A stretch of 64,000 nucleotides of DNA from a virus: IMG/VR virus record IMGVR_UViG_3300017746_000002, positions 59,270 to 123,269 of that record. One strand, 5' to 3'. Made by a program: the position numbers and the translations under genes. The notes under the pieces are model-generated. The model was not told the DNA's origin, ran no database searches, and was given only the letters and a program-made list of their open reading frames with translations. This document shows positions 2,703 through 56,617 of this stretch, piece after piece (the first letter of the stretch is position 1; every line of letters begins with the position of its first letter).

Positions 2703-5700
2703 CTAAACTCCAAATATCCAATCTCTTAAAGCTTTCTTACTTCTTGCTAGCTCTTTTTTTCTATCACAGGAAGAACAACCTACTTCATTACCATATTTTA
2801 CTTCTGTAGTATTTTCTATTTCTGTTTCTTCATCCTTATTATTAGTCATATTAGAACGTAACGGTGTAGAAGATGCTGAACCTTGTCCCATATATTGTTT
2901 AATACAATTAAGCATTTGATTTGTATTATCTTTAAAGCCCATATCGTTACATGCTGTTCTTGCATTTTGCATTGTCATTTGTTCTGTAGCTTTATTAGCA
3001 TTAAGATCATCAGGATTATAAAATGTGTTCATATGATTCTGAGCATCATAGTAGTAATTAGGATTCTCCATATTTAATGCATATAACTTATCTGCATTAT
3101 CCATTCTTTCTACTTGTGTATCTACAATGTTTGCATTATCTGCAGCCATTGTATTATCAAAATTATTTAATGCTGTTGCTACTCTTGTGTTATATTCATC
3201 TCTATTAGCTGAATTTGTAGCCATTGCGTTATTTAATATTTGAGACTTTCTTGCTTCACTGTTGTCAAAGATCTTAATGTTTGTATTTGCTACATCAGAA
3301 ATACCTTTATTCATCTTATCACTAATTTGTCCCATATAGAATGAAGCATTTGCAGGATCAGCTTTTGCTAACTGTTGTGCCATAGCTAAGTTAGCTTGTA
3401 TCATAGCTTGAGGATCTTGATATGCTACATCAGGAAGAACAGGATCTACATTTTGCCTAGTAGGCATATATAAATTTCTATCCCACTTTTGACCAATAGC
3501 ATTTTGTAGTCTAAGATCATCCTGTGGGAAAGTCATATAAGGAGGAATTTCTCTATCTTCTGGTGTTTCAGGTTTTGTTTTACAACTACAAGTATCTAAA
3601 TCAAATTCTTGTCCTTTACTTAAACATTCAGCAGCTATTCTTTTTTGTTCTGCTTCATCACATTTTATATCTGTAATAATTTCTTCTTCATGTACTTCAT
3701 TAGTAGCAGAACTATATTGTCCAGCAGATGCCATTCCTATTATACCATCAAGATCTGACATTGGTAAACCAGTTCTTTCATCTATGTGTCTTCCACCTTT
3801 ATGCTTTCCTCCTTTTAAATCTAAAGTAATATTACCAAAAAATGCATCTGCTTGATCTAAATCTGTTTCTGTACCTTTTAGATCTTGCATTGCTGTAAAC
3901 ATTCCTTGGAACATTTTAGCATTTTGTGCATAGGTATCACCTTCACAATCACCCCAACCAAACTCTTCACATATAGCTTTATATCCTCCTGATTTAAAGT
4001 CAGTTGGGTTATAACCTGCATGTTTAGCTTGGAGAAGTTTATCATTCATATCCATATATGCTGTAAACAACTCTTCTTCTGATTTACCTGATACTGGTTG
4101 ATTAGCTACTATTCTTTTTAAATCTTTAACACTAAGATCACCAAGCTTCTTTCCATCTTTAATAGATTTTTTTATTGCCTCTATACCACCTGCATTTAAA
4201 ACAACATCATCCCATTGTTTTTCAAGAGCCCTATAACCTTCAACCCATGCAGTTCTAACATCTGCAAAATCTTCACCCATAACATGATTATAGAATTCTT
4301 GGTGTGCAGCTCTACCTGCTTCTCTACCTTTATATTTATCTGAATCATGTGCATTCTTATGATTACAATCATCACCTGTACATATAGGTTGTCCTTTTTG
4401 CATTTGTGGTAGTTCCATGCCATCTCTTGCCATCATCATACCTGCGCCTTGCATAGCAGGATTAGAACCAGTATACATTGAAGGATCTGCAATCTGCACA
4501 TTTGGCATAGATTGATCTAAGTCCATTATTGAACCTGCTAATACATCTTTTCTTTGAACACTTCTCATTTGAAGCTCAACGTCTCTCATTTGTGCTTGGA
4601 GATTATTTATTTGTTTTTCAAACTCCTCTTGCGCTTTCTTTTCTTTAAACATATGAGGATTTGCTTGATGATACTTTATAGCTGCAGAATGCTCTTGCTG
4701 CATCATTTCTAATTGTGAACCAAGAGATCTATACATAGGGTTACTTGTATATGATGGAGTTAATGGATCTAACTCAATCTCATTTGATCTACCCATAGAT
4801 ATACCCATATTATCTTGTCCCCCATAAACAAATCTTCTTAGTGAACCACCTCTACTCATTCCTGGTAGTCCAAGAGGATTTTGATCTCTTACATATCCTT
4901 CAGGAACTCCCATTGTAGGAACCATTGGTTGACCTGTTTCAACACCCATTTGTCCAAATAGTGGATCTTTAAAGCCAGCCCCTAAATCTCTATCTCCATG
5001 TATTGCATCCCATTCAGCTTTTATATTGTTAGTTGATTCAAACATAGCTTCTGATCTAGCATCTGGTCCACCAGTATTTCCACCTCCTTGCATTTTGGGC
5101 ATATTACCATAAGGCATGTTAGGTAAATTTTCATGACCTGGCATGATTCTTGTGTCTGTATCAGGAGCTTTCATTTTGTCAAGAGCTTTAGTCTTATAGC
5201 TCTCATACATAAATTTAACTTCTTTTATATCTTTTAATCTATATGCAAATCTCCACTCATCATATGTACATAGTTGATTCTTACATTTTGTAGCTAAATC
5301 AAATTCAACCTTAACTTCTGGTTCTTCTTGTAAAGCTTTACCTACTCCTGCACCAGCAACTGCACCAGCTGATTGAGCAGGCACTTCTCCTTGAGTTTGA
5401 TAAGGCATTAAGTCTCCACCATACTTCATACCAGGACCTTTATAATTTTTATTTGTATCAGCTGCATGTTTCATTGCTGCACTAGGTGGAGGATTTCCAT
5501 ATGCTGGACATGGTGGATGATCATCTTCTGCTGAATTATCCTGTGGCGTATTCTCAACTGGAGCAACACTGTAAGTAGATTTTTTAAATCCACCAAATAA
5601 TAACTTATCTAACTTTGTTGGATTGTTTGGCATACCACCCGTTACACCACCAGCTGCCATTTGTGGAGGAACCATCATACCTTGTGCTTGCATATCAGTA

Positions 5701-6383
5701 GGAGGTTGAGGTGGCATCATACCTTGAGGAGGCATTCCTTGAGCCATACCTTGTTGTGGTTGTTGCTCTGGATTCTTTTCAGCATTAATCTGATCTATCT
5801 TTTGTTGAAATTGTTGAGGGTCTACACCTTTAGCCATTAAATATGGAAAAGCAGCTAATGGTAAACCATTCTCAAAATCTTTTTTAGATTCTTGGATAAA
5901 TGCTATCTGAGATAACATTATCTTATTTTTATTAATCATCTGTTCTGCAGTTTCAACTGCAATCTTATCAGATGTTTCATCTTCTAATGTTTCTATATAT
6001 TTATTTAAAGGAAATTTCTTAGCAGCTTTAGCAGGAGTAATTCTTTTCTTTTGTTCAATTCCTAAAGATTTCATTTCATCTTTAGTTAAAAGCATTCCTC
6101 TTGTGTCAGAGTAAATAAAACTTTGGTCTGGTAAACTTAAAGGAGTACCTCCTTCATTATGTCTTTTACCTCCTATGTTATATAATTCAAATACTCCATC
6201 TCCTGACGTGTCAGTTAATGCTACTTCACCTTTTTCTGCTTCTAAATTAGCTGCTTCTCTATCAACAGGCTTTAATGTATTGCTAGAAGTAGCACCACCA
6301 GCAGCATATGTTTTTATAACTTTACCGTTTCTTACAGTAAAACCTTTGGGTAATGAATTTTTATTTATTTTTATTTTTGCCAT
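2703..6383 (-). CDS. Putative virion cargo protein, 1226 aa
   Basis: N-terminal NLEAEKGE...GGKRHNEGG...FIYSD block typical of crAss-like cargo proteins; many xxGG motifs; position after muzzle. Confidence 0.7.
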   Translation of the reverse strand: MAKIKINKNSLPKGFTVRNGKVIKTYAAGGATSSNTLKPVDREAANLEAEKGEVALTDTSGDGVFELYNIGGKRHNEGGTPLSLPDQSFIYSDTRGMLLTKDEMKSLGIEQKKRITPAKAAKKFPLNKYIETLEDETSDKIAVETAEQMINKNKIMLSQIAFIQESKKDFENGLPLAAFPYLMAKGVDPQQFQQKIDQINAEKNPEQQPQQGMAQGMPPQGMMPPQPPTDMQAQGMMVPPQMAAGGVTGGMPNNPTKLDKLLFGGFKKSTYSVAPVENTPQDNSAEDDHPPCPAYGNPPPSAAMKHAADTNKNYKGPGMKYGGDLMPYQTQGEVPAQSAGAVAGAGVGKALQEEPEVKVEFDLATKCKNQLCTYDEWRFAYRLKDIKEVKFMYESYKTKALDKMKAPDTDTRIMPGHENLPNMPYGNMPKMQGGGNTGGPDARSEAMFESTNNIKAEWDAIHGDRDLGAGFKDPLFGQMGVETGQPMVPTMGVPEGYVRDQNPLGLPGMSRGGSLRRFVYGGQDNMGISMGRSNEIELDPLTPSYTSNPMYRSLGSQLEMMQQEHSAAIKYHQANPHMFKEKKAQEEFEKQINNLQAQMRDVELQMRSVQRKDVLAGSIMDLDQSMPNVQIADPSMYTGSNPAMQGAGMMMARDGMELPQMQKGQPICTGDDCNHKNAHDSDKYKGREAGRAAHQEFYNHVMGEDFADVRTAWVEGYRALEKQWDDVVLNAGGIEAIKKSIKDGKKLGDLSVKDLKRIVANQPVSGKSEEELFTAYMDMNDKLLQAKHAGYNPTDFKSGGYKAICEEFGWGDCEGDTYAQNAKMFQGMFTAMQDLKGTETDLDQADAFFGNITLDLKGGKHKGGRHIDERTGLPMSDLDGIIGMASAGQYSSATNEVHEEEIITDIKCDEAEQKRIAAECLSKGQEFDLDTCSCKTKPETPEDREIPPYMTFPQDDLRLQNAIGQKWDRNLYMPTRQNVDPVLPDVAYQDPQAMIQANLAMAQQLAKADPANASFYMGQISDKMNKGISDVANTNIKIFDNSEARKSQILNNAMATNSANRDEYNTRVATALNNFDNTMAADNANIVDTQVERMDNADKLYALNMENPNYYYDAQNHMNTFYNPDDLNANKATEQMTMQNARTACNDMGFKDNTNQMLNCIKQYMGQGSASSTPLRSNMTNNKDEETEIENTTEVKYGNEVGCSSCDRKKELARSKKALRDWIFGV

Positions 6384-6385
6384 AA

Positions 6386-9300
6386 TTATATAATTTCTAT
6401 ATCAGCACCTGCTTTTATTAGTTCTTGTAATAATTCATAATCTATTTCTACTTCAGTTCCATACTTTGCTACCTTATCTATTTTAGGTTCATCTTTTTTC
6501 TTAGCTATAGTAGAAGGTGCAGGTTTTTCTGTTTTTGGTAGAGTAGTTTCTTCTGCTTTAGCAATTAAAGCACTTGGACTTTTACCGTCCTTTTTATCTG
6601 GAGTTACGGCATCAGCAACTTGTGTAGTCATACTTCTACCATCAGTAACACCTGCATATTCAGCGGCATCCTTTGCTACTGAAGCCGCACCTACTGCTAT
6701 TCCAGCTCCAGGTATCATTGAGGCAGCATTAATTGCCATATTTTCTGTATGCTTCATTGCTCCCTCTGTATCTCCTTCATAAGCAGAATAACCAGCTCTA
6801 GCACCAGATGTAGCTGTATTAACAGCATCCACAACATTACCTACAATAGGAACTGTACCTGCTGCTGACATAGCTGTTTGTGCATAATCTAAACCTTTAT
6901 TTATAGGAGTTTTAAAATCAGTTTCTTCATACCAATTTTTTGCTTTATCCCACCATCCGTCTTTTGCCATTGGTAAATGACCACCATAAGCCATTTTAGC
7001 CATTATTTGTTTTTGATATGCAATAACTTCAGGGCTATAACCTATCTCTACATTATAAGGATTAGATCCTGTAAACTCAGCTAGTGCTGCATAGTTAACA
7101 TTATCTACAACCGGTTGTGCCATACCCTGTCCACCCATTTGCATTATTAATGGAGCCTTCATATTATTACCAGAATAGATTTCATCTACTTTCTCATTAG
7201 TAAAGCTATCTCCACTATTAACATCATGTATTCCTTGTGAAGATTCCTGAACCATAAATTGAGATTCAGCATCAGTATTTTCTGTTTCAGCCTTTGTTTG
7301 AGCAGCATCATTTGCCCATCCTTCTAAAACAGCATTACCAAAGTCTGCCCATTTAGTTACAGCTCCTGATACATCACCATATGTATTTATAGCTCTATCT
7401 ACTATACCTGTTTTAGTATTAGCTTTTACTCTATTAGCAATATTACCATAACTTGAGTCAACTACTCCTGAATCAGCAACAGTAGTCTCATCCATTTCAT
7501 TCATTTCTTCTTCAGTCATGTTTGCTTCTTCCTCATCAGTAGTACCGTCACCTTCTGGACTTCCATCTGGTGGTGGAGTTGCATTTGCGTCAGGATTATT
7601 TGCATCATTGTTAGCATTTTCATTTGTTTCATCTACAGGAACTTCTTTCTTTTCTGCATTATTATCTTTTGGAGGATCACTAGGACCATCAGATTTATTT
7701 TTATTATCCTTATCTTTTTCTCCTTCATCTTGATAGAAAGGTAGTGCACCTCCATTTCTGTAAAAGTTTAACTTGTCTGCACGTTCTTGATCATCTTGCA
7801 TTAATAATTTATGTAACCATTCTCTATTTAATTGTAACTTTCCTGCTGGACCTAAATTGCTTTGATGATTTTGATCTTGTCCTATAACGTTTCTGTACAT
7901 CCAACTATTAGCTAAATCATTTTCAATACGTAAACTATCCCTAGTTATTGCATTTTGTAATTCATTAGCAGTAAAATTCCCTGTATATGGAACAACTGAT
8001 GTTCTTGGAAAATTAGGAGTGTACTCTAAAAAGTCATGTACTTTTTCACCTTTATCTTGATATTTGTCAAGTTGTTTTTGACCACCGTATACAAACATTT
8101 CTAATCCCATACTAGCTTCTTCTCTTTCTTTTCTTAATCTATTTTTTCTTTCCTGATTTCCTTCTTGAGTTTTAATAACTTTTGTAGCACCATTAGTATA
8201 TTTAATTGTTGTAGTACCATCACCATTATCAACTCTACTTTCTTCTATTAAGCCACTAGGATTATCATTTCCATCGTCATTATTATTATTATTATCTTCT
8301 TCTCTCTTTTCTCTCTTTATTTCTTCACTTGATTTTTTTATGACTTTCTTATTATCAGTATAATCATTTTCTGGATCATAATCTTCAATTTGTAAATTTG
8401 ACATACCATCATCCATTATAACATTAGGATCTGCTTCAGGTCCTGTTCTTACTAAACTTGTTACATCAGCATCAGGATTAACTAATATATCAGTTACACT
8501 ATAATCTTTAGTTTTATCTCTTGCTTTATCAAACTCTGTTCTATCATTTTCTGAATCAAAAGCTCTAGTTTTTGTTACTGTTTTAGTTACTGTTTTTGGA
8601 TTTTCCTCACTTTCTGGTTCATCAGGATTGAAATTTGGATTATCTTCTGTAACTTCTTCTTCATATTCTACATCATCATAAGTTACATTTCCTGTTACAC
8701 GGTCCATTGTTTGTCTAGAAGCAACATTAGTATTGTCTAAATGACCTTTTTCATTATATTCAGTAATTAAATTATCTCTATGATCTTGGAACTCATTAAA
8801 TCTTCTAGAAGTATGCATTCCTTGTGTGCCTATAACATCAGATAGTTTCATGTCTTTATCACCAGACTCAATAAACTTTTGTAAATTAGCATCATCCCAA
8901 TATAACTGTGCATCATTTGCATTACCAATCTTACTTGTATCAAGAGTGGTTTGTTTAAAGTCTGCTTTTGTATAAGGTTTGCCTGTTTTAGGATTTATTG
9001 ACTGTCTTCCAAATCCTTTTATTGCTTGTCCTGTAGAACCAATTGCATCAGCTAAAAGACCCCATTTAGATGTTGGAGATAATTCATAATCAGGAGTTCC
9101 TTTTTTTGTTCCTTGTCCTAAATTGTGAGAATTAACAACATCCTCCATTTCTTTTTTACTAATCTTACCATTTTGATAATCTTGTATAGCTTTTTGCTTA
9201 TCAGTTTCTGAAGACTCTTCTACTTTTTCTATACATGTACATGTAGCTGGATCTACTTTAAGTCCTTTCTTAGCACATTCAAAATATACAGATTTTTCAC

Positions 9301-9784
9301 AACCTTCACCTTCAGGACTACCATCACCTTCTCCATCATTATCTTCTGCATTCTCACTTATCTGTTCACCACATGTGCTTTTAGTAGGACTACAACTTCC
9401 AGAAGAAAAATATTCTTCTCCTGCTCTTTCCCATCCTTCTGGACATATACATTTATTATCTACAGACTCATCAGTATAGTCTCCACCTCTCGTACCATCA
9501 GTTTCCTCACCTTCAGTGTTCTCTTCACTTGGAGTACCTTTTAAATATTCTTGATATTGTTCTTGTGCATTTGCACCCTTTCTATTTACTGGATCTTGTA
9601 GTACCCATTCTTTAAAGTCTAGTTTCTTATCAACAGTTTCTTCCTCTTCCACTGTTTCTTCAATAGGACCTTCAGTCTGATACCATGGTAATGCACCACC
9701 ATTACGCATAAGATATTGATACTGATCCAAGTATGGATAAACGTCAAAAGTTTGATTTTTTATATTTTTTTTCTTTTTTGCCAT
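6386..9784 (-). CDS. Acidic low-complexity putative cargo protein with xxGG motifs and a pre-toxin-TG-like segment, 1132 aa
   Basis: Long ORF; RNGGALPxYQ twice; C-terminal AAGTVPIVGNVVDAVN...AASMIPGAG. Confidence 0.65.
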   Translation of the reverse strand: MAKKKKNIKNQTFDVYPYLDQYQYLMRNGGALPWYQTEGPIEETVEEEETVDKKLDFKEWVLQDPVNRKGANAQEQYQEYLKGTPSEENTEGEETDGTRGGDYTDESVDNKCICPEGWERAGEEYFSSGSCSPTKSTCGEQISENAEDNDGEGDGSPEGEGCEKSVYFECAKKGLKVDPATCTCIEKVEESSETDKQKAIQDYQNGKISKKEMEDVVNSHNLGQGTKKGTPDYELSPTSKWGLLADAIGSTGQAIKGFGRQSINPKTGKPYTKADFKQTTLDTSKIGNANDAQLYWDDANLQKFIESGDKDMKLSDVIGTQGMHTSRRFNEFQDHRDNLITEYNEKGHLDNTNVASRQTMDRVTGNVTYDDVEYEEEVTEDNPNFNPDEPESEENPKTVTKTVTKTRAFDSENDRTEFDKARDKTKDYSVTDILVNPDADVTSLVRTGPEADPNVIMDDGMSNLQIEDYDPENDYTDNKKVIKKSSEEIKREKREEDNNNNNDDGNDNPSGLIEESRVDNGDGTTTIKYTNGATKVIKTQEGNQERKNRLRKEREEASMGLEMFVYGGQKQLDKYQDKGEKVHDFLEYTPNFPRTSVVPYTGNFTANELQNAITRDSLRIENDLANSWMYRNVIGQDQNHQSNLGPAGKLQLNREWLHKLLMQDDQERADKLNFYRNGGALPFYQDEGEKDKDNKNKSDGPSDPPKDNNAEKKEVPVDETNENANNDANNPDANATPPPDGSPEGDGTTDEEEANMTEEEMNEMDETTVADSGVVDSSYGNIANRVKANTKTGIVDRAINTYGDVSGAVTKWADFGNAVLEGWANDAAQTKAETENTDAESQFMVQESSQGIHDVNSGDSFTNEKVDEIYSGNNMKAPLIMQMGGQGMAQPVVDNVNYAALAEFTGSNPYNVEIGYSPEVIAYQKQIMAKMAYGGHLPMAKDGWWDKAKNWYEETDFKTPINKGLDYAQTAMSAAGTVPIVGNVVDAVNTATSGARAGYSAYEGDTEGAMKHTENMAINAASMIPGAGIAVGAASVAKDAAEYAGVTDGRSMTTQVADAVTPDKKDGKSPSALIAKAEETTLPKTEKPAPSTIAKKKDEPKIDKVAKYGTEVEIDYELLQELIKAGADIEII

Positions 9785-9829: not shown

Positions 9830-11548
9830 CTAACTTTTAGTTAGTGACTTCATGTACTCTACTGTATCTAAACCTGCTTTTTTAGAATCTTGATAATAAA
9901 CTCTATTAAGTTTATCATATATTCTTTTTAACTTTTTTTGATATGGTGTACCTTCTGCAGCACCACTTACGTGTGCCATATACAATGCTATCTGGTCATC
10001 TATAGGAATAACTTTATCATCTCCAAGTGTTACGTTTTTTACATTTGTATTTACATCAAGATCTTCAAATGTTATTTCTGGAGCAGAAGGAGGAGGTGTA
10101 GTTAATGCTTCTACATTAGGATCTGTTACTTCTTCATTAGGTATCATTCCTAGTGCGCTTAGATGTTTTAATCCTGAAGGTGATAATTTATCTCCGTTTC
10201 TATATTTTTTTATAAGTTTCTTTGTTAATTCATGAGCTCTTTGTTGATCATGTATTTGTTGAGCAATATCAATTATTTGAAAATTACCTGATCCATCTGC
10301 ATCATCTTTATCATAATACACTCTATCATCTATATCTTTATGTTTATAGTTTACATAAGGTAAGTTTCTTCCTTTATCAAAGTCTTTTTTAATAGTATAG
10401 TTACCTTGAGGTGTTTCAATCTTTTTTTCAGAACCCATTTGAAACTTAGGTAAGAAAGCACCATTACGCATCATATCTGCAATTACACCATCTTGGTTTT
10501 TAAGAGCAAGCTTTTCTTTATTGTAAGGAGATTGTTTAACAGAGCCACCATACTTAGCCATCATAGTATTACTACCATCATCTATTTCATCATTAGATGT
10601 AAATGTATTCATCATATCAACAACTTGATTATCATCAAACTGCTCTAATAATTGTTTATCTTTTATAAACTTATCTGGATTTTCTTTTATATAATCTATA
10701 TGTGATTGGTCAAACATAAAGTCTTCCTCAAAATTATATAAACCTGCTTTCCATAACTCATACCTTGTTGTATCTATGTCAGATTTAATTTCATAGCTTC
10801 TTGTATCATGAGGTATTTGTAAATTATTATCAGACCAAAGAAAATCACTTCCTTTCTCTCTAGTGATCTCTCTTTCACCCTCAGTCATTAAAAACTCTTG
10901 TGCAACGTTATCTTTAGTATTAGGATGATTAGCACCTAATGCATGAGAATATTCATTAACAAGAATACTATTAAATGGATCATAAGATAATTCATTATCT
11001 TCTGCCATTGTTACAGCTTGTCCTGGGTTTACTTTAACTATAGGATTTATATTACCTTCATCTTTATAATTAGGTCTTTTATAGCTAGATTGTAATCTAT
11101 CAAATTTCTCCTGTAGATTCATCATAGTGAATATATTAGCATCTTCACTATAATCCCTAGCATATATCTCTGCCCATTCTTCTTCTCCACTAAAGTCAAC
11201 TTCTGTATCTTCTAATCTTTTTAGTTTACCATCTCTTACTTTTTTCCATTCTTCTTCACCATGTAAATCTATTGCTCTACGTTTAAATAAATCACTATTT
11301 AAGTAAGCTGTAAAATAATCTTTGACTTCTGAACCTTCCTGAGCCATAGGTATTTCCCTTACCATATTTGTATCAAACTTATGAAGACCTGAGTTAGGAC
11401 CTAGAATAACATTATTAGCAAGTAAAGGCATGCTTACATCTGTCATATCTATAATTCCATCTGGTGTATGAATATCTAAGTATGGTCTATCCTTATAAGG
11501 AGAGTCATCTTTATATCCTTGTTTTGATATATCTTTTTGATCTTCCAT
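9830..11548 (-). CDS. Putative cargo protein with degenerate zincin-like module, 572 aa
   Basis: ILVNEYSHALG...HDTRSYEIKSD; MAQEG, MAKYGG and MRNGAFLPKFQMG motifs. Confidence 0.6.
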   Translation of the reverse strand: MEDQKDISKQGYKDDSPYKDRPYLDIHTPDGIIDMTDVSMPLLANNVILGPNSGLHKFDTNMVREIPMAQEGSEVKDYFTAYLNSDLFKRRAIDLHGEEEWKKVRDGKLKRLEDTEVDFSGEEEWAEIYARDYSEDANIFTMMNLQEKFDRLQSSYKRPNYKDEGNINPIVKVNPGQAVTMAEDNELSYDPFNSILVNEYSHALGANHPNTKDNVAQEFLMTEGEREITREKGSDFLWSDNNLQIPHDTRSYEIKSDIDTTRYELWKAGLYNFEEDFMFDQSHIDYIKENPDKFIKDKQLLEQFDDNQVVDMMNTFTSNDEIDDGSNTMMAKYGGSVKQSPYNKEKLALKNQDGVIADMMRNGAFLPKFQMGSEKKIETPQGNYTIKKDFDKGRNLPYVNYKHKDIDDRVYYDKDDADGSGNFQIIDIAQQIHDQQRAHELTKKLIKKYRNGDKLSPSGLKHLSALGMIPNEEVTDPNVEALTTPPPSAPEITFEDLDVNTNVKNVTLGDDKVIPIDDQIALYMAHVSGAAEGTPYQKKLKRIYDKLNRVYYQDSKKAGLDTVEYMKSLTKS

Positions 11549-39541: not shown

Positions 39542-40855
39542 TTAAAATCTTTTAAATATATTATTACCTCTAGGTAATGTTCTTCTCTTAGTGGTTTTTG
39601 TTTCTTTTGGTTCTAAACCTGTAGAAGATGCATTTCTACTAGATTGTGCTGATTTGAGTTTTCTTACAGTTTTCTCAACAGCTTTGTTTTCACCCTTTGT
39701 CATTATTTGATCTTTATAACCTTTTGGATCAGCTAGTAACCATAATGCTTCAGATACTAAATTATAATTAGGTTCAACAAATTGATATTTTTCTAGTAAA
39801 TGACCTAGCAAGTTTGTGTTTTGTCCTGATATAGATGGATATGATGGATTAACTAAACCATTATATAATAATGATTGAGTTTTTTTATTAACTTTCATAT
39901 CACCTAATGTTCCTCCTTTAAGTGTATTATATACATTTTGCATATAATCCTCAGATGCTTTACGCTGTTGTGCTTGCTTCATTTCTTGTTCTTGAAGTTT
40001 TCTAGCAACAACTGCTTCTGACATCTTATCTAACTTTGGCTTAAACTTAGAAGCTTGTTTCTTAAGCTTACCTAAATCTTTCCAAATTTCTATTTCTTCT
40101 TGAATATCTTCTGCAGATCCATAACCTGTTGCAGATAAATATTCTCTTATGATATGTGATTGACCTTGTTCACTGTTTAGATCTAACTCTCTTGTTTCTT
40201 CAACAGATGCTAATGCAGAAAATAATCCTTTTAGATCTTGACCTCCATCAGCAACATATTTTGCTGCAGTTTGTAATTCATTTGGTAAACTATCAAAAAA
40301 CTGTTTTGGAGTTTCTCTTCTTACTTTATTACCTCTTTCATCCATATTAGCTTTAATAAGCTCTTTCCAATCTTTAGCAGTGTAATCATCTAAATCTTTG
40401 TCATCATCAAAAGGAATGATTTCTTCATTATCAATCATCTTTTTAAAGACATCTGACATTCCTTCAATTCTTTTTCTTCCTTTAGCAGTTGATTTTTCAT
40501 CTTCTGATTCTGCTAATTCTAATCCATCATTAAGAATATCATCTATTTCATCTTTGGTCACCTTTTCTTTAGCCTCTGGAATAGTTCCTCCTTCTGCTAC
40601 TACCGGTGTTTCAGGTTCCTTAATTTCTTCAGTATTTGTAGTATCTGTAGTCTCTTCCTTAACTTCTTCTTTAGGTTCATCTACAAATGATAAATCAACA
40701 TTTTCTGGTCTTGAGAACATACTAGGTTTTTTGGAACTGTTCTCTTCAGGTAATGTAATAGAATCAGCACCTGGAGCTCCATTAAAGATCTCATCCAAGT
40801 TAACGTCTACATTCTTTTTTACCTCTGTTTGTTCCATATTTTTTTCTTCTGACAT
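39542..40855 (-). CDS. Putative capsid scaffolding protein
   Basis: Acidic N-terminus, helical; between portal and MCP. Confidence 0.6.
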   Translation of the reverse strand: MSEEKNMEQTEVKKNVDVNLDEIFNGAPGADSITLPEENSSKKPSMFSRPENVDLSFVDEPKEEVKEETTDTTNTEEIKEPETPVVAEGGTIPEAKEKVTKDEIDDILNDGLELAESEDEKSTAKGRKRIEGMSDVFKKMIDNEEIIPFDDDKDLDDYTAKDWKELIKANMDERGNKVRRETPKQFFDSLPNELQTAAKYVADGGQDLKGLFSALASVEETRELDLNSEQGQSHIIREYLSATGYGSAEDIQEEIEIWKDLGKLKKQASKFKPKLDKMSEAVVARKLQEQEMKQAQQRKASEDYMQNVYNTLKGGTLGDMKVNKKTQSLLYNGLVNPSYPSISGQNTNLLGHLLEKYQFVEPNYNLVSEALWLLADPKGYKDQIMTKGENKAVEKTVRKLKSAQSSRNASSTGLEPKETKTTKRRTLPRGNNIFKRF

Positions 40856-50807: not shown

Positions 50808-53800
50808 TTAGTAGTCTAAGTAAAAAGGTTTTTTATAAGGTCCTTCTATATTAAACGGATGTTTAGGTGTATCAAAAAATCTTTTGAATATGTTTCTATC
50901 ATCCCATTTATAATCTCCTACTATTCTATCTAAATCTAATTTTTCTGCTGCCTCAAGTTCTTTATTTAACTTTTTTATAATATCATCATTACCTGATTTC
51001 AATGTTGGTCCTTCATATTTGGGTCTTGAATAATCAGGCACCATTCCAAATGGTCCATCACCTGGTTTTGTATGTGTATAAGTTGGAGGAACATTATTTA
51101 GCATGTTATCATAAGCATCTAATTGGCTGTTTATCACATTATCAACTTTTGTTAAATCCTTTGGTACTGTTTTTCCTGGATTATTAATCTTAAATTGTTT
51201 AATTTCTTCAGTAATTTTTATTTTACCTTGTTGTAGTTTAGTTATTTTATTTGTAAGATAATCTTGTTTAACTATGTATTCTATATTATTTTGTAAAATC
51301 TTTTGCTGTACTTTAGGTGCATTATTTTCTACCCAAGATTTAGTTGCTGGATTATATGTATGAGTTTTTGATTGACCTACTACTCCTTGCACACCATCAT
51401 CCCACCAATTTTTAATTGGATTAAGAATATGTTTTTTAGTTGCACTTACTAGTGGTCCAGCAGTAAAAGGTAAAATTCCGTACAGTCCGTATAAAGTTGC
51501 ATCAGTATACTCTCCTTTATTATAATGGTGTCCAGCATTAACAAAATCCGCACCAGGGTGTACTATAGCAGTTGCGTCTAATGCCATATCTGTTCCTTCA
51601 TCTTTACCATAACCAAAATGTTTACCAATAGTTCCTGCAATTCCTTGGTCCATACCAAACATTCTCTCAAAGCCTCTTGCATCTACAAACCTACCAACAT
51701 CAGATTTTTTAAAGCTATTCCACAAACCATCATTATTTTTTTCACCTTTTGATTGATACTTAGGTAACATTTTTTTATACTTAGCAGCACTTTGTGAATA
51801 TCTATCATTAGAATATATATCATCAGATTTTATTTCTTTTCCTGCTTTTGCTTTTGTAGATCTTAAATCAAGTCCCCACATATATTGACCGCCATACTTT
51901 ACCTGTGGTATAGTTGTTTCTTCACTTAAATCAGATATGGTATTACTTAATGCTAAATTATCATTTATTGTAAGATCATTATTAAGAGAAGGCATTGGAT
52001 CCATTGCAGATCTACTCATAGTTGCATTTTCAGCTGCTGAACCATCTGGTATATCTGTTGCTGATGATGAACTACTTCCTCTAGCATTTATAGGTGCACC
52101 ATCCATAAACCAAGGTAATTCTAATTCATCTGGCATCCATCCTTCTTCACCTTTCCACCAACTTGTTTTCTTTTTTTGCGGTTCAGTCATATCTACAGGA
52201 TATGTACCAATAGGTAAAGGCATATTTTTTAATGGAGGTGCTATAGTTGTTTTTTCTTCTTGAATATCCATCCATGGTTTAAGATATGTATTCATAAAAA
52301 TTTCATTTCTTTCACCTAATGCTCTTTTATATTCTTTCTTTGCTGATTTAAAATCTTTATCATGTATTGCTTTAGCAAAGTTTTTAAATGTTTTATGAAA
52401 ACCACCTCTTACATTAAATGTATAATCATTTAACATAAATTGCTCTGACTCTGTTAAATCATCCCATTTATTGTCCCCAAATCTTTGATTATAATATATT
52501 TCACTTAATCTAAGTTTTTCATCTATATCTTCACCTAATAAATCTAGTGCTTGAGTTTCATCAATACCATCTTTGTACTCATCTAGTATATCCCTATCTA
52601 CTGGAGCATGACCGTGTCCTATTGTTGCACGTTTTTCATCTCCTACATAGTGAGGATAATATTTACCGTCTTCATAGATCTTATAATATGTTTTACCATC
52701 CCATTTACCATCTGATCCTAATTTTTTTACTGCTGAGTCTTTATTTCTTATGTAATGATAACCACTTTCAGTATCTAATGCAAACTGAATGTATTTTTGT
52801 CTTTCAGTTTCAGTACCATTCTGAGCTTTTTGTAATTGACCACCATATTTTTTAAAGTTTGTCATATCAACTGACTCCTTAAACTCTTTATATGATTTAA
52901 ACCCATTCATTTCTGCCATCTCTCTACTAATTTTAAGAGCTTCAGATTTATTTTTCATAGTTCTTAATACTTTGTCCATTTCATTTACCTGTATAGTTTT
53001 TGGATAACGAATTAAATCATCTAAAGTACTTGTACCATATTTGTCCCACGTAGAAATTCCATGGTTACCTTCCCAGGGAATACCATCTAATGTTTCAATA
53101 GTCTCTAAAGAACTAACACCATGTGCTCTACTATGACCTGCTCCATGAACATCTCTTAACTTTTTCCAAGAAAAATCAAAATCTGGATGCATTGGTGTAA
53201 TTCCATCTGTTTTACCAGTTAAAGGGTTTATAAAATTGTGATCCCATCCTTGAAAAGATGGTGTATAATACGAACCATCATTAGCCTTTTGATTAATAGC
53301 AACATTTTTTCCAGCATCATAGTTCTTTATTAAATGATCTCTAAAAACTGCATCACCTTCAGAGTTATTACCAAAACTACGATACCTATCTATAGGATTT
53401 ATCATTTCTTCGGTTGGTTTACCATACATTCCTTTCCCTCCCTTTGTACTATATGAATTTATAATAGCCTCAAATGCATCATCTGTAGTATTTTCAAATA
53501 GTTTTATATTTGTAATACCTGTTTCTTTTTTTATTCTATTATATAATTTTTTATCTCTAGTTAGGATTAATGAATTACTTGGTATTTCAAAATCACCTTT
53601 TGTATAAAAGTATGTATCTGTTGGATCAAAATTTACAGCAACTCCAGATTTTTTTAAATTATCAAAATCATTAACAACAGCTGTAGATTTACCACCCCAC
53701 TTACCATGTCCAGGATTTCCTATGTGACCATAAGACCAATGTGTAGTATTTCTATTTAGAGTATAATCATTCTTATCCCCAGCCTTCTTTGATCTTGCGT

Positions 53801-56066
53801 ATGTATGAGGTTCTGTTTTACTGTATAATTTACCATCCTTTATTTTCAACCCTTTGCTAGATAATGCTCTTGTTAATGGTATTTTACTTTTAAATTTATT
53901 TGCTTGATTAACAAATGCTTCATTATCTAAAGATTCTTTAATTTGTTTGGTTGATAATTTTATATCCTTACCTTCTAAATACTTTTTACTTTCAACTGGT
54001 ATAATTTTTTTATCAACTTTACTTGTAGTATTACGTAATGTTGCAGCATCTAAAGTTTCACTAAGTTCTTTAGCAATTTTAGCATTTTTTCCTAAAGGGT
54101 TTGTATTCTTAAGATAGTTAAAAGCCTTTTTAGTTCCTTTTACTAAAGGACCTGCAGAAAATGGTAGTATACCAAACATTGCATACAAGGCTGCATCAGT
54201 GTGCTTACCTTGTTGAGCATGGTCATATGCATTAATAAAGTCTGGTAAAGGATTAACCATAGCAGAAGCATCAAGCCCCATTCTTCTAGCATCTTCTGCA
54301 GTATTTTCATAACCGAAGTAGTCACCAATAGTATTCATCATATGCTCACCATCTCTTCTTAATCCTTTTGCATCTACAAATTTTCCTATTTTAGATTCTT
54401 CAAAATCATTCCATCCAAATTGAGCTTTTGGTAATGAACCACCATCTTGTAGTTTATATTTTTCTCTTAACTGATTTTCAAAACTATCAGGTGCATTATG
54501 AGTTTTATATTCATAATGGTCTTTATCATGGTATCTAGAATGATCCATTTCTTTACCTTGTATAAAACGCATTGCGTCATTCATAAAACTTTTTGGAATA
54601 TTATAAAAACTTTCACTTCTCCAAAATTCTGGAATATGTGCAAATTCTGCAATTATATCACTAAAGTATGTTGATCTATAAACATCCTCTACTGAATCAT
54701 TTAATTCCTTAATCTTTTGTAATCTTTCTTCTTCAGTCATCTGTTTTACCCAATAGGACTCACCTAATTTAATAGTTTCTATTAAGTCATTGTGCCAATT
54801 ACGATATTCAACATCACCTGGTTCTATCATCTTAGGTACATGTATATTTTTTAATATTGGATTAGCATGTGGTCTAAAATCATTCTTGTCTCTATAAGAA
54901 AACGATTTTGGAAACATCTGCCCTAAAAGATTAGGTTCATTAGAAATATTCCTTACACCTAAATCATCTGTCATTCTTAAAGCATCTTTCCAATGCATTT
55001 GACGTTTGTCTTCATAAGAATTTCCAATATCTACGGTTTGTGCAATACCATCTGGAGTTACAAATGCATCATATAAATTTTGTTGAGGTTGACTTAATGT
55101 ATTATATGTTTGATCTGTTAAAGCTGATACTTCAACTTCAGGCAACATTCCTCCCTGAATAATTTCTTCTCCATCTTGTCTAATAGGTAATCCAAATCCT
55201 ATAGTAGCTTCTGCACCTGTATTTGGATTATACCCTACCTTACCAGACAATAATCCTACATTTCCATATAAACCAGCAGTAGTCCCAGTACCTCCAACTA
55301 AATCATGTCTTCCATAAATACCAGCACCATATTTCCACGGTTCTCTCCAATTATACGAATTACCACCAAATTCTCCTTCTATCCCAACAGATCCGGTTGC
55401 GTCAAGTATAGGATCAAACTGAGTAGTTTCATCCATCTTAAATCTAGTTCCTCCACTTAATCCTAAATGACCAGTTAGAGGTTTATAAGGAACATGTGTA
55501 CTATATCCTAAACCTGCTCTAACAGATCCAGACATTCCCTTACTACTTATATCACCTAGAGTCATAGCTCCAGATCCATATAGATTATGCGCTGAGTCTC
55601 TATACCCACACCCAGTCTTAACAGATTCTCCATTCCATTCTCCATTACTACACATAGATAATTCTGTTCCTCCTTGTGCTTTCCATGAACCTTCACCATA
55701 TTTTAAAGCATCTTCTTTATTAGGACCGAAGTGGATTAATTCACCACGTCTCTTAGCTTCTAACATTGCAGGTCTCCAATTATCTGGATCTTTTTCTAAC
55801 ATTAACTCATATGTATTATTCCAACTTCCATCTTCATTTTGAAATAACGTAGGAAAAGAAACCCAATTAATACCATCAATTGTTTCTGTCTTCATTATAT
55901 GTGTAGACACACCCCCATTAGGATTAATTCTTTCACCATCTCTTTTTGGTGCTTTAAACTCTATTCCTGTTTGTGCTATCTCTCCGTTAACAGAAGGATT
56001 TACGTCTTGATCCGGATTTTCTACCATCCCCAACCAATCCACTGATGCGTTAAAAGTTTTTCCCAT
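50808..56066 (-). CDS. Modular putative virion polyprotein (lysozyme, zincin-like, beta-barrel-like, two pre-toxin-like modules), likely 1752 aa from MGKTF
   Basis: Long ORF; late promoter motif immediately upstream of ATG 56066; ATIGHGH...YTFN lysozyme motifs; internal duplication. Confidence 0.75.
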   Translation of the reverse strand: MGKTFNASVDWLGMVENPDQDVNPSVNGEIAQTGIEFKAPKRDGERINPNGGVSTHIMKTETIDGINWVSFPTLFQNEDGSWNNTYELMLEKDPDNWRPAMLEAKRRGELIHFGPNKEDALKYGEGSWKAQGGTELSMCSNGEWNGESVKTGCGYRDSAHNLYGSGAMTLGDISSKGMSGSVRAGLGYSTHVPYKPLTGHLGLSGGTRFKMDETTQFDPILDATGSVGIEGEFGGNSYNWREPWKYGAGIYGRHDLVGGTGTTAGLYGNVGLLSGKVGYNPNTGAEATIGFGLPIRQDGEEIIQGGMLPEVEVSALTDQTYNTLSQPQQNLYDAFVTPDGIAQTVDIGNSYEDKRQMHWKDALRMTDDLGVRNISNEPNLLGQMFPKSFSYRDKNDFRPHANPILKNIHVPKMIEPGDVEYRNWHNDLIETIKLGESYWVKQMTEEERLQKIKELNDSVEDVYRSTYFSDIIAEFAHIPEFWRSESFYNIPKSFMNDAMRFIQGKEMDHSRYHDKDHYEYKTHNAPDSFENQLREKYKLQDGGSLPKAQFGWNDFEESKIGKFVDAKGLRRDGEHMMNTIGDYFGYENTAEDARRMGLDASAMVNPLPDFINAYDHAQQGKHTDAALYAMFGILPFSAGPLVKGTKKAFNYLKNTNPLGKNAKIAKELSETLDAATLRNTTSKVDKKIIPVESKKYLEGKDIKLSTKQIKESLDNEAFVNQANKFKSKIPLTRALSSKGLKIKDGKLYSKTEPHTYARSKKAGDKNDYTLNRNTTHWSYGHIGNPGHGKWGGKSTAVVNDFDNLKKSGVAVNFDPTDTYFYTKGDFEIPSNSLILTRDKKLYNRIKKETGITNIKLFENTTDDAFEAIINSYSTKGGKGMYGKPTEEMINPIDRYRSFGNNSEGDAVFRDHLIKNYDAGKNVAINQKANDGSYYTPSFQGWDHNFINPLTGKTDGITPMHPDFDFSWKKLRDVHGAGHSRAHGVSSLETIETLDGIPWEGNHGISTWDKYGTSTLDDLIRYPKTIQVNEMDKVLRTMKNKSEALKISREMAEMNGFKSYKEFKESVDMTNFKKYGGQLQKAQNGTETERQKYIQFALDTESGYHYIRNKDSAVKKLGSDGKWDGKTYYKIYEDGKYYPHYVGDEKRATIGHGHAPVDRDILDEYKDGIDETQALDLLGEDIDEKLRLSEIYYNQRFGDNKWDDLTESEQFMLNDYTFNVRGGFHKTFKNFAKAIHDKDFKSAKKEYKRALGERNEIFMNTYLKPWMDIQEEKTTIAPPLKNMPLPIGTYPVDMTEPQKKKTSWWKGEEGWMPDELELPWFMDGAPINARGSSSSSATDIPDGSAAENATMSRSAMDPMPSLNNDLTINDNLALSNTISDLSEETTIPQVKYGGQYMWGLDLRSTKAKAGKEIKSDDIYSNDRYSQSAAKYKKMLPKYQSKGEKNNDGLWNSFKKSDVGRFVDARGFERMFGMDQGIAGTIGKHFGYGKDEGTDMALDATAIVHPGADFVNAGHHYNKGEYTDATLYGLYGILPFTAGPLVSATKKHILNPIKNWWDDGVQGVVGQSKTHTYNPATKSWVENNAPKVQQKILQNNIEYIVKQDYLTNKITKLQQGKIKITEEIKQFKINNPGKTVPKDLTKVDNVINSQLDAYDNMLNNVPPTYTHTKPGDGPFGMVPDYSRPKYEGPTLKSGNDDIIKKLNKELEAAEKLDLDRIVGDYKWDDRNIFKRFFDTPKHPFNIEGPYKKPFYLDY

Positions 56067-56068
56067 AC

Positions 56069-56078
56069 TATAATATAC
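56069..56078 (-). promoter_or_regulatory. Putative late promoter (GTATATTATA)
   Basis: Exact core motif 2 nt upstream of the in-frame ATG. Confidence 0.6.
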
Positions 56079-56287
56079 TAAAATTATAAGACCTATCCAA
56101 AGTATCCCCCACCGTTTTACAAACCGGGAGACACCCCTGGGTCCATACCCCATGGCTTTTAAAAAAGTTGTGAGCATGGCATTGTAGAAGGGTCCTAGTG
56201 AAACAGCTCCCTCACTTTTTCCTGTCTTACTGTACCCCCGGGTCTTAAGTCACTTAAACTATTTTATTAATTTCAAAAACAAAAAAC

Positions 56288-56617
56288 ATGTCAAAAACAA
56301 CAGTTTATTTCAAAAAAATCACCCAATCAAAGAAGGGTGTAGTCTTCTGCGTTAACAAGCCAACTGCTTCACAAGTGAAGTCAGCAGGTCAGTCAACAAG
56401 CGTAGACTTCAAGATGGGCAATGCCACAGTAACTGGCCGTAAGGCTTTCCACAACTTTGGTCAACAGTACTTCGTACAGCTTGACTGTTCAAAGTTAACT
56501 AAAACTCAGGTACCAAAGGTCGGTACTGAGTTCCAGATTGTTACTACTGACAAGCCAGTAATCAACAATTCTACAGGTGAGGCAATGCCTAACCTGAACT
56601 GGGGCTACGCAGGGTAG
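56288..56617 (+). CDS. First early gene; small basic beta-rich protein
   Basis: A-rich leader, C-ending codons, downstream hairpin. Confidence 0.7.
   Translation: MSKTTVYFKKITQSKKGVVFCVNKPTASQVKSAGQSTSVDFKMGNATVTGRKAFHNFGQQYFVQLDCSKLTKTQVPKVGTEFQIVTTDKPVINNSTGEAMPNLNWGYAG

Follow-up and report, generated by a model that had tools for sequence, protein, structure and literature searches.

The window analysed here, a stretch of 64,000 nucleotides (nt), is the last 64 kb of the 123,269-bp virus record IMGVR_UViG_3300017746_000002 of IMG/VR, which CheckV rates as complete. The gene at issue lies on its minus strand as a single open reading frame (ORF) of 1789 amino acids (aa), and its product, here called P0001, is a string of unlike modules joined by variants of one short peptide. 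A preliminary description, drawn up from the letters of the sequence, had read the locus as encoding a tag-delimited effector polyprotein; its overall observation of one ORF, a set of tags and an internal duplicate is confirmed, and the borders it set between modules coincide with homology breakpoints. No family match to the whole of P0001 was obtained in Pfam, PHROGs or PDB sequences; a Pfam scan at E up to 1 returned DUF3945 alone, at 12.5 bits and under its cut-off, and a comparison with 50,697 phage records (megablast and tblastn) gave no match. The features of the gene, in codons of the whole open frame, are as follows.

56067..56250, minus strand: G+C-rich conserved leader of ~185 nt upstream of Met38, probably untranslated (alignment of the window with loci L004 and L005)
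50808..56177, minus strand: whole open frame of P0001, 1789 aa (single ORF)
56066, minus strand: probable true start, Met38, giving 1752 aa
55965..56066, minus strand: conserved N-terminal leader, aa 38-71 (MGKTFNASVDWLGMVENPDQD.NPSVNG.[KIM]AQTG), which closes with the first tag (N-termini of relatives)
aa 67: tag IAQTG
55671..55964, minus strand: module 1, aa 72-169, a predicted autonomous alpha/beta domain (alignment)
aa 166: tag KAQGG
55170..55670, minus strand: module 2, aa 170-336, rich in Gly and aromatic residues, between KAQGG and IRQDG
aa 333: tag RQDG
54453..55169, minus strand: module 3, aa 337-575, mostly helical by prediction, with conserved IAE.AHIPEFWR
54414..54452, minus strand: full junction tag LQDGGSLPKAQFG, aa 576-588
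54087..54413, minus strand: adaptor copy 1, aa 589-697, beginning right after the tag
52854..54086, minus strand: module 4 tail, aa 698-1108 (11-stretch alignment)
52815..52853, minus strand: full junction tag KKYGGQLQKAQNG, aa 1109-1121
52188..52814, minus strand: module 5, aa 1122-1330, predicted T4-type (GH24-like) lysozyme with an insertion
51723..52187, minus strand: segment aa 1331-1485, disordered by prediction from about aa 1325, with three degenerate tags
aa 1426-1430: tag VKYGG
aa 1442: tag KAKAG
aa 1471-1478: tag LPKYQSKG
51390..51722, minus strand: adaptor copy 2, aa 1486-1596
50811..51389, minus strand: module 6 tail, aa 1597-1789, with long predicted helices
50808-50810, minus strand: stop codon of P0001

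All eight tags that had been picked out by eye are present in P0001 and are members of one peptide family, the consensus of which is K-[KQ]-Y-G-G-S-L-P-K-A-Q-x-G (135 distinct KAQxG sites, with Gly-Gly just upstream in 76 and Leu-Pro directly before the Lys in 67). At the positions of the weaker tags, relatives of P0001 carry KAQTG or MAQTG, IRQ[DQ]GGSLPKAQxG, KAQAG and LPK[YF]Q..G, so that IAQTG, RQDG, KAKAG and LPKYQSKG are degenerate members of the same family. Across 93 proteins (156,590 aa), the counts of [KR]AQxG, Q[DNKE]GG and [KR]YGG are 152, 118 and 78, where shuffles predict 2.95, 13 and 6.8, respectively. Synonymous codons at the tag track gene-wide usage (GCT 29, GCA 23; CAA 42, CAG 11), and as codon choice there is as free as elsewhere in the genes, selection acts on the tag as a peptide and not as DNA; the same freedom rules out the tags as DNA-level recombination signals. 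In structure predictions, segments with a predicted local distance difference test (pLDDT) score below 50 wholly contain five of the eight tags, while KAQGG, LQDGGSLPKAQFG and KKYGGQLQKAQNG straddle the edges of such segments. The peptide is also found close to protein ends: among 117 relatives, a Gly-Gly tag stands 2-3 residues before the C-terminus in seven, a tag lies within the last 60 aa in 31 and within the first 60 aa in 22, and P0094, a single-module protein, bears tags on both flanks.

The preliminary description proposed that module shuffling should be sought among orthologous loci, with breakpoints at the tags, and this is what the relatives display. A search of 5.8 billion proteins yielded 92 relatives of 983-3131 aa, each of which, the protein itself being excluded, shares between 4 and 65% of the query, and BLAST segments between P0001 and these relatives show modules kept, lost, duplicated and reordered as units. 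Module order varies accordingly: P0008 reads leader, module 3, module 2, module 5, adaptor with module 6; P0012 reads leader, module 1, module 3, module 5; and P0003 reads leader, module 3, adaptor with module 4, module 5, followed by a foreign tail. Neither an invariant order nor breakpoints unrelated to the tags were found, as 195 of 300 internal segment ends fall within 10 aa of a tag, a neighbourhood that takes up 9.1% of positions. The closest comparison is with two syntenic loci, L004 and L005, in which neighbouring genes are 77-95% identical to those of the window (TerL, of which L004 holds a part, is 94.6% identical there); despite this synteny their module sets differ, in proteins of 1234 and 2386 aa. 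Clustering of tag-cut segments collapsed into one single-linkage cluster and was not used. Beyond the modules of P0001, the relatives carry LysM, YkuD, SLT, PG_binding_1, glucosaminidase, CHAP, ART-PolyVal, kinase and SET modules, the ART-PolyVal module of P0040 scoring 45.5 bits.

The genome is that of a crassvirus, with Crass_capsid, CrAss_Ring_1 and CrAss_Ring_2 among its Pfam families and portal, TerL and MCP among its PHROGs matches. The closest TerL in the phage collection is 25.5% identical (Flavobacterium phages), and no cultured relative was found there. The gene for P0001 heads a long minus-strand block; behind it come a 111-aa ORF, PhoH, a candidate endolysin-like gene, and the genes for terminase, portal and capsid. 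According to the text of Bayfield et al. (2023, PMC10172136), PhicrAss001 has R1 gp43, muzzle gp44, cargo C1 gp45 and cargo C2 gp46 in succession; C1 lies within the virion, where it is observed in capsid and tail alike, is kept partly unfolded, and is ejected N-terminus first. In the window, a 2408-aa ORF comes after ring 2 and ring 1 and so occupies the muzzle slot. Of 22 loci compared, 12 have their module-1 protein directly after the orthologue of this 2408-aa ORF, two (L004 and L005) have it at the position of P0001, and the remaining eight belong to other phage types. P0001 itself does not stand directly after the muzzle gene. That slot is held by the following gene:

9830..11548, minus strand: 572-aa ORF in the slot after the 2408-aa muzzle-slot gene (shared ends)

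The ends of this 572-aa protein (N-terminal ...PMAQEG, C-terminal YDKLNRVYY...) match those of the relatives' large module-1-bearing slot proteins. A composite tag pattern occurs eight times in the 123-kb genome against 0.08 expected: twice in P0001, five times in the 572-, 1132- and 1226-aa slot ORFs, and once in a 437-aa ORF between the portal and capsid genes. This sharing of the composite tag with the slot genes is the main reason for which we class P0001 with the cargo proteins despite its distance from them, about 39 kb. The 437-aa ORF (39542-40855, minus strand) has no family match, and its GGTIPEAK is the only tag-like peptide of the genome outside P0001 and the cargo-slot genes. The product may be a further internal protein or else a scaffold employing this peptide. 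The 1226-aa ORF (2703-6383, minus strand) and the 1132-aa ORF (6386-9784, minus strand) carry a tag variant with Tyr-Gln in place of Ala-Gln (GGALPWYQ, GGALPFYQ and GGDLMPYQ), one example lying 26 residues from the N-terminus of the 1132-aa protein. Just past the left edge of the window, in the same operon, is a tagless 5257-aa ORF (G000 C1:42756-58529), and the genome also encodes a standalone SET-domain protein of 111 aa (G000 C1:36987-37322). A Pfam SET domain is held by the slot protein of L076 as well, and the N-termini of L029, L034 and L074 look related by eye.

Where translation of P0001 begins has a bearing on its likely destination. Upstream of Met38 the DNA of the window, L004 and L005 is 83% identical yet contains frame-breaking 1-nt indels (alignment of the three), and in L004 the frame is interrupted by a stop codon 17 codons ahead of the MGKTF start; Met38, at 56066, the very end coordinate given in the preliminary description, is therefore the better start, and translation probably begins there, leaving the 37 upstream codons untranslated. 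From Met38 the protein opens with the leader (aa 38-71), which roughly 20 relatives have at their N-termini with 63-94% identity. The open frame extends up to 56177 and includes hydrophobic residues at aa 23-36, and if it were read from Met1 these would form a signal-anchor, so that P0001 might be an unpackaged late protein, membrane-anchored or secreted, which aids lysis or remodels the envelope from within. The lysozyme module described below would suit such a role, as would the candidate endolysin-like gene and PhoH just downstream. We nonetheless regard this explanation as improbable: the indels and the L004 stop in otherwise conserved upstream DNA make the N-terminal transmembrane helix a likely artefact, the tag is common to cargo-slot genes only, and relatives of P0001 occupy the cargo slot. 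The conserved leader DNA of 185 nt, between the P0001 gene and a divergent ORF at 56288, is unusually rich in G+C for a genome of 31% G+C. As a structured RNA it was rejected, having no Rfam family, no tRNA and a folding z-score of -0.47, and compensatory changes were seen at none of 47 predicted pairs among the three sequences. It may have a promoter or regulatory role, or be an RNA element sampled too thinly for covariation to show.

A true polyprotein, in which the junction peptide is the cleavage site (after Gly-Gly, within KAQ-x-G, or both) of a protease from phage or host and the effectors are freed in the capsid or after injection, would accommodate a motif that is conserved as a peptide, separates modules that shuffle independently, and falls inside or at the border of segments of low pLDDT (below 50). 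It would likewise accommodate the standalone occurrence of module 1 elsewhere (95-137 aa, usually tagless), and the terminal stubs could then be trimmed propeptides. Gly-Gly-X sites are used by clan CE viral proteases. For the polyvalent proteins of phages, the text of Iyer et al. (2017, PMC5512222) proposes processing by a built-in peptidase, citing the cleaved P1 proteins DarA and DdrB. In P0001 the built-in candidate would be module 3, labelled 'zincin-like' in the preliminary description, a label that finds no support: ten homologous stretches from nine relatives contain no HExxH, with Ala at the position of the first His in IAE-x-AH-IPE, and no matching fold was found. Since module 3 is missing from many tag-bearing relatives, it cannot be a general processing enzyme. 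A Pfam scan of the 74 ORFs of the genome, from which the 5257-aa ORF was left out as too long, recognised no head-protease family, and the only protease family found among these ORFs was DUF2201_N, a putative metallopeptidase of the replication block. Further, cleavage at the C-terminal tags of the seven relatives noted above, or at the end tags of P0094, would free a mere stub, and the text of Bayfield et al. (2023, PMC10172136) contains no word beginning cleav-, proteoly- or protease. Taken as an account of the whole protein, a processed polyprotein seems to us the less likely reading, but a serious rival.

The duplicate noted from the sequence as ~95 aa is real and somewhat longer, about 110 aa: aa 589-717 and aa 1486-1612 share 55 of 129 residues (43%, E 9e-31), at positions close to those first claimed, and the sequences that follow the two copies are unrelated to each other. 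A profile of this domain, which we term the adaptor, finds 31 copies in 24 of 181 sequences, with the start within 5 residues of a tag in 16 of the 31, and what stands between the domain and the following tag or the end of the protein is, by inspection, of at least six unrelated kinds, so that a conserved domain does precede unrelated tails, as had been proposed. Searched with HMMER against 1.84 billion cluster representatives at E up to 0.001, it occurs in 52 proteins only, mostly large multi-module proteins like P0001; two matches that carry bacterial repeat or secretion domains are apparently spurious. Of 41 proteins put through the Pfam scan (35 from this list and six earlier relatives), 34 have no Pfam family and none has a toxin family. 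The adaptor itself matches no Pfam pre-toxin family, and in the PDB it finds only YjbJ (CsbD-like) at E 1.1, which is not significant. To judge from these searches, the adaptor is a rare phage-only domain placed before variable tails.

In this duplicate the preliminary description saw the hallmark of polymorphic toxin architecture; in the polymorphic toxins of bacterial conflict, a pre-toxin domain presents swappable toxin tips and cognate immunity is encoded nearby. The form of that architecture stands, given a ~110-aa domain before at least six continuations and relatives that carry ART-PolyVal, kinase and SET modules. Membership of the class does not: P0001 lacks domains for secretion or trafficking and matches neither a pre-toxin nor a toxin family of Pfam, which leaves the label 'pre-toxin-like' without support, the adaptor is limited to 52 of 1.84 billion clusters, two non-phage-looking ones among them probably spurious, and the variable modules are internal as well as C-terminal. 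Nor is there a co-varying immunity gene. As had been remarked, none is evident, and the 111-aa gene downstream is 77-83% identical in the window, L004 and L005, though the C-terminal module of L004 differs; it stays constant whatever the C-terminal module. We judge it very improbable that P0001 is such a toxin.

Module 5 is the one module to which an activity can be assigned. A profile of eight sequences retrieved 32 PDB matches at E up to 10, all 32 of them T4 lysozyme, endolysin or gp5, the best at E 0.01, so that the sequence evidence alone is marginal. The model (pLDDT 56-94) points the same way in Foldseek, where all 49 of the matches listed are T4 lysozyme, T4-lysozyme fusion constructs or the phage 21 (R21) endolysin, with a best E of 1.4e-2 and a TMt of 0.63 to 3hdf_B. 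Pfam Phage_lysozyme, at scores below its cut-off, was not found in P0001 and reached 20.3 against a required 22.3 bits in the relative P0021. Glu in LDTESG and then Thr in ATIGHGH follow in the expected order, and the catalytic residues of the module may correspond to the Glu/Asp/Thr triad of T4 (E11/D20/T26). Together, profile and predicted fold indicate that module 5 is a T4-type lysozyme, in agreement with the lysozyme module of the preliminary description.

Module 1 is the most widespread of the modules, with the motif P.R.G.R.N..G..STH.M..E...W.SFPTLFQ...W...EA..RGE..FG...A..FGEGSWK. Searched as an alignment, it is encoded by 143 IMG/VR stretches, of which 80 were kept; a single sequence recovered two loci and the whole protein none. 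It lies near the N-terminus of phage proteins of 1200-3400 aa, many of them without any KAQxG tag. Standalone module-1 genes of 95-137 aa, ending in ...GEGSWK and mostly tagless, occur in other phage contigs (L033, L036, L039, L040, L055, L060, L061, L064, L066, L075, L078-L080 and L083). The AlphaFold2 model is confident (pLDDT 89-96) and suggests an autonomous alpha/beta domain, for which Foldseek found no PDB fold at E up to 0.001, and VIA-align, in whose output the helical part of module 3 took up the rows, gave no PDB fold match. In BFVD its matches are solely uncharacterised phage proteins, which include a 147-aa protein of Pseudomonas phage 98PfluR60PP and a 'Morphogenesis protein' of crAss-like phage cr108_1. 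A match to the C-terminal tail of mycobacterial ribosomal protein S1 (PDB 4NNH, E 1.5e-4) was treated as a short-motif resemblance.

Module 2 travels as a unit (query aa 166-336/338, 70-87% identity) in P0010, P0024, P0029, P0030 and P0032, and as query aa 149-338 in P0008. It had been called a Gly-rich beta module, and the richness in Gly and aromatic residues holds; the beta label found no support from AlphaFold2, which, with one homologue row, gave no confident model. About eight stretches of alternating hydrophobics are reminiscent of a small outer-membrane beta-barrel, as an impression from sequence. Module 3 is modelled as helical (pLDDT 55-82), without a Foldseek match at E up to 0.001 and with a best VIA-align Z of 4.9, to generic helical proteins only.

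The tail of module 4 carries the motifs SRNT[TS]HW.YG, KSTA..DF and PTDT[YF]FY, and in P0094 it occurs without the adaptor, between the two flanking tags. Its pLDDT is mostly below 50, and its atlas matches, at 0.82 or less, are at chance level, among them a Tox-ART-HYD1 row at 0.79; an ADP-ribosyltransferase was rejected, as hhalign against the relatives' ART-PolyVal modules gave a probability of 0.56%. The tail of module 6 is 52-72% identical to sequences in P0006, P0008, P0010, P0016, P0022 and P0035, and its predicted helices have pLDDT 54-89. Between module 5 and the second adaptor, the segment aa 1331-1485 (155 aa) is 80-92% identical in the closest relatives and has pLDDT below 50. It holds VKYGG, KAKAG and LPKYQSKG, and also the motifs PLPIGT.P.D, SWW.GEEGW.PDELELPWFMDGA and MDPMPSLNNDLT.NDNLAL. 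It may be an extended segment whose binding partner is met only within the particle or the envelope.

Drawing these strands together, we propose, at a probability of roughly 60%, that P0001 is a polyvalent protein of the cargo type, injected by a marine crAss-like phage. A short leader and six exchangeable modules would be strung on flexible-looking linkers that carry the one junction peptide. P0001 would be made late, packed into the particle alongside the cargo-slot proteins, which share its peptide, and extruded through the tail at infection, whereupon the lysozyme module would open the peptidoglycan, and the two adaptor-plus-tail units and modules 1-3 might act on the envelope or inside the host. 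Action of this kind is proposed for polyvalent proteins in the text of Iyer et al. (2017, PMC5512222) and for crassvirus cargo in that of Bayfield et al. (2023, PMC10172136). The virion-delivered effectors of the preliminary description are plausible in this context, given the cargo-slot position of the relatives and a tag common to the slot genes.

Several findings weigh against the proposal. Some 39 kb separate the cargo slot from the gene, which is the first of the PhoH-terminase-portal operon, and P0001 lacks the N- and C-terminal end domains common to the slot proteins. It matches no Pfam or PHROG family, cargo families included, and neither does the 572-aa slot protein; 27 relatives scanned at E up to 0.001 matched no Pfam cargo family either. 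Its presence in the virion is argued from gene context, and only one of the six modules, the lysozyme, has an identified activity. Low pLDDT at the tags may come from shallow alignments rather than disorder, and the 300 segment ends are those of related, non-independent proteins, in which conserved tags can themselves end or extend BLAST segments. Lastly, that standalone module-1 proteins are mostly tagless fits modules which work alone after release by cleavage, and a novel protease would escape a Pfam scan.

As to the junction peptide itself, we lean, at a little short of even odds, towards an uncut handle for the loading, docking or threading of each module, and hold a protease site to be possible, with the handle slightly the likelier of the two. 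This preference follows from the Gly-Gly tags at the C-terminus, the tags near protein ends, the flanks of P0094, and the lack of a recognised head protease. More broadly, and more tentatively, the peptide might be the address label of an undescribed crassvirus cargo system, in which a phage component recognises and loads tag-flanked modules and then releases or positions them, while the adaptor serves as a second-level delivery domain that takes its tail to a host membrane or compartment. Effector modules would then be freely swappable, even between genes in distant parts of the genome. Crassviruses rank with the most abundant of phages, and they select, package and eject a large protein cargo; if the peptide marks every joint of shuffled cargo modules, it offers a direct experimental handle on loading and release. 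The tag and modules extend beyond the cargo gene block, and three phage-specific domains (module 1, the adaptor and the module 4 tail) are candidates for new envelope-breaching or host-takeover activities. Judged by titles or the beginnings of abstracts, a full-text literature search for 'LPKAQ' returned no phage paper, and papers on 'polyvalent protein' with 'crAss' gave no description of the tag; to the extent of that literature, descriptions of the junction peptide, the adaptor domain and module 1 are lacking.

It remains to set P0001 beside the systems it resembles. MuF-type toxins of temperate phages and bacterial polymorphic toxin systems pair a conserved N-terminal domain with alternative C-terminal domains. 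The P0001 family is alike in form, a conserved domain being followed by alternative tails, and differs in that a MuF or pre-toxin family and an immunity partner are lacking, and in that one protein holds several variable units instead of a single tip. The T4 gp5 tail lysozyme (PDB 1K28, 1PDL) is likewise a T4-type lysozyme domain attached to a structural or injected protein and used to get through the wall during entry; unlike that of gp5, the lysozyme of P0001 is one bead in a shuffled string and not part of a spike, and its best E, 0.01, is marginal. Nearer to hand is C1 (gp45) of PhicrAss001, as its text presents it (PMC10172136): module-1 relatives occupy the same slot in the order ring 1, muzzle, C1, and the tag is common to the slot genes here. 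P0001 differs from C1 in lying elsewhere in the genome, in being twice as long, in carrying enzyme modules and in having no detectable similarity to any Pfam cargo family; no mention of a tag or of processing was found for C1 there.

The likeness is also close to the polyvalent proteins defined by Iyer, Burroughs, Anand, de Souza and Aravind (2017, PMC5512222). In P0001 the signature domains ART-PolyVal, MPTase and LPD were not detected with Pfam, and module 3 is not a recognisable zincin MPTase; a conserved junction peptide was not found described in that paper, the main text of which has no word beginning 'linker'. As presented there, polyvalent proteins are, like P0001, very large and composed of many unrelated domains, and they are alike too in lying beside virion genes, in being predicted to travel with the DNA, in often including a lysozyme and in mosaic rearrangement. 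P0001 is encoded next to late and virion genes, by the first gene of the strand that runs into terminase, portal and capsid, while its relatives lie inside the tail and cargo block, and the polyvalent proteins' own ART-PolyVal domain is present among those relatives. The class to which we would assign P0001, that of polyvalent phage proteins and crassvirus cargo, is one already known.

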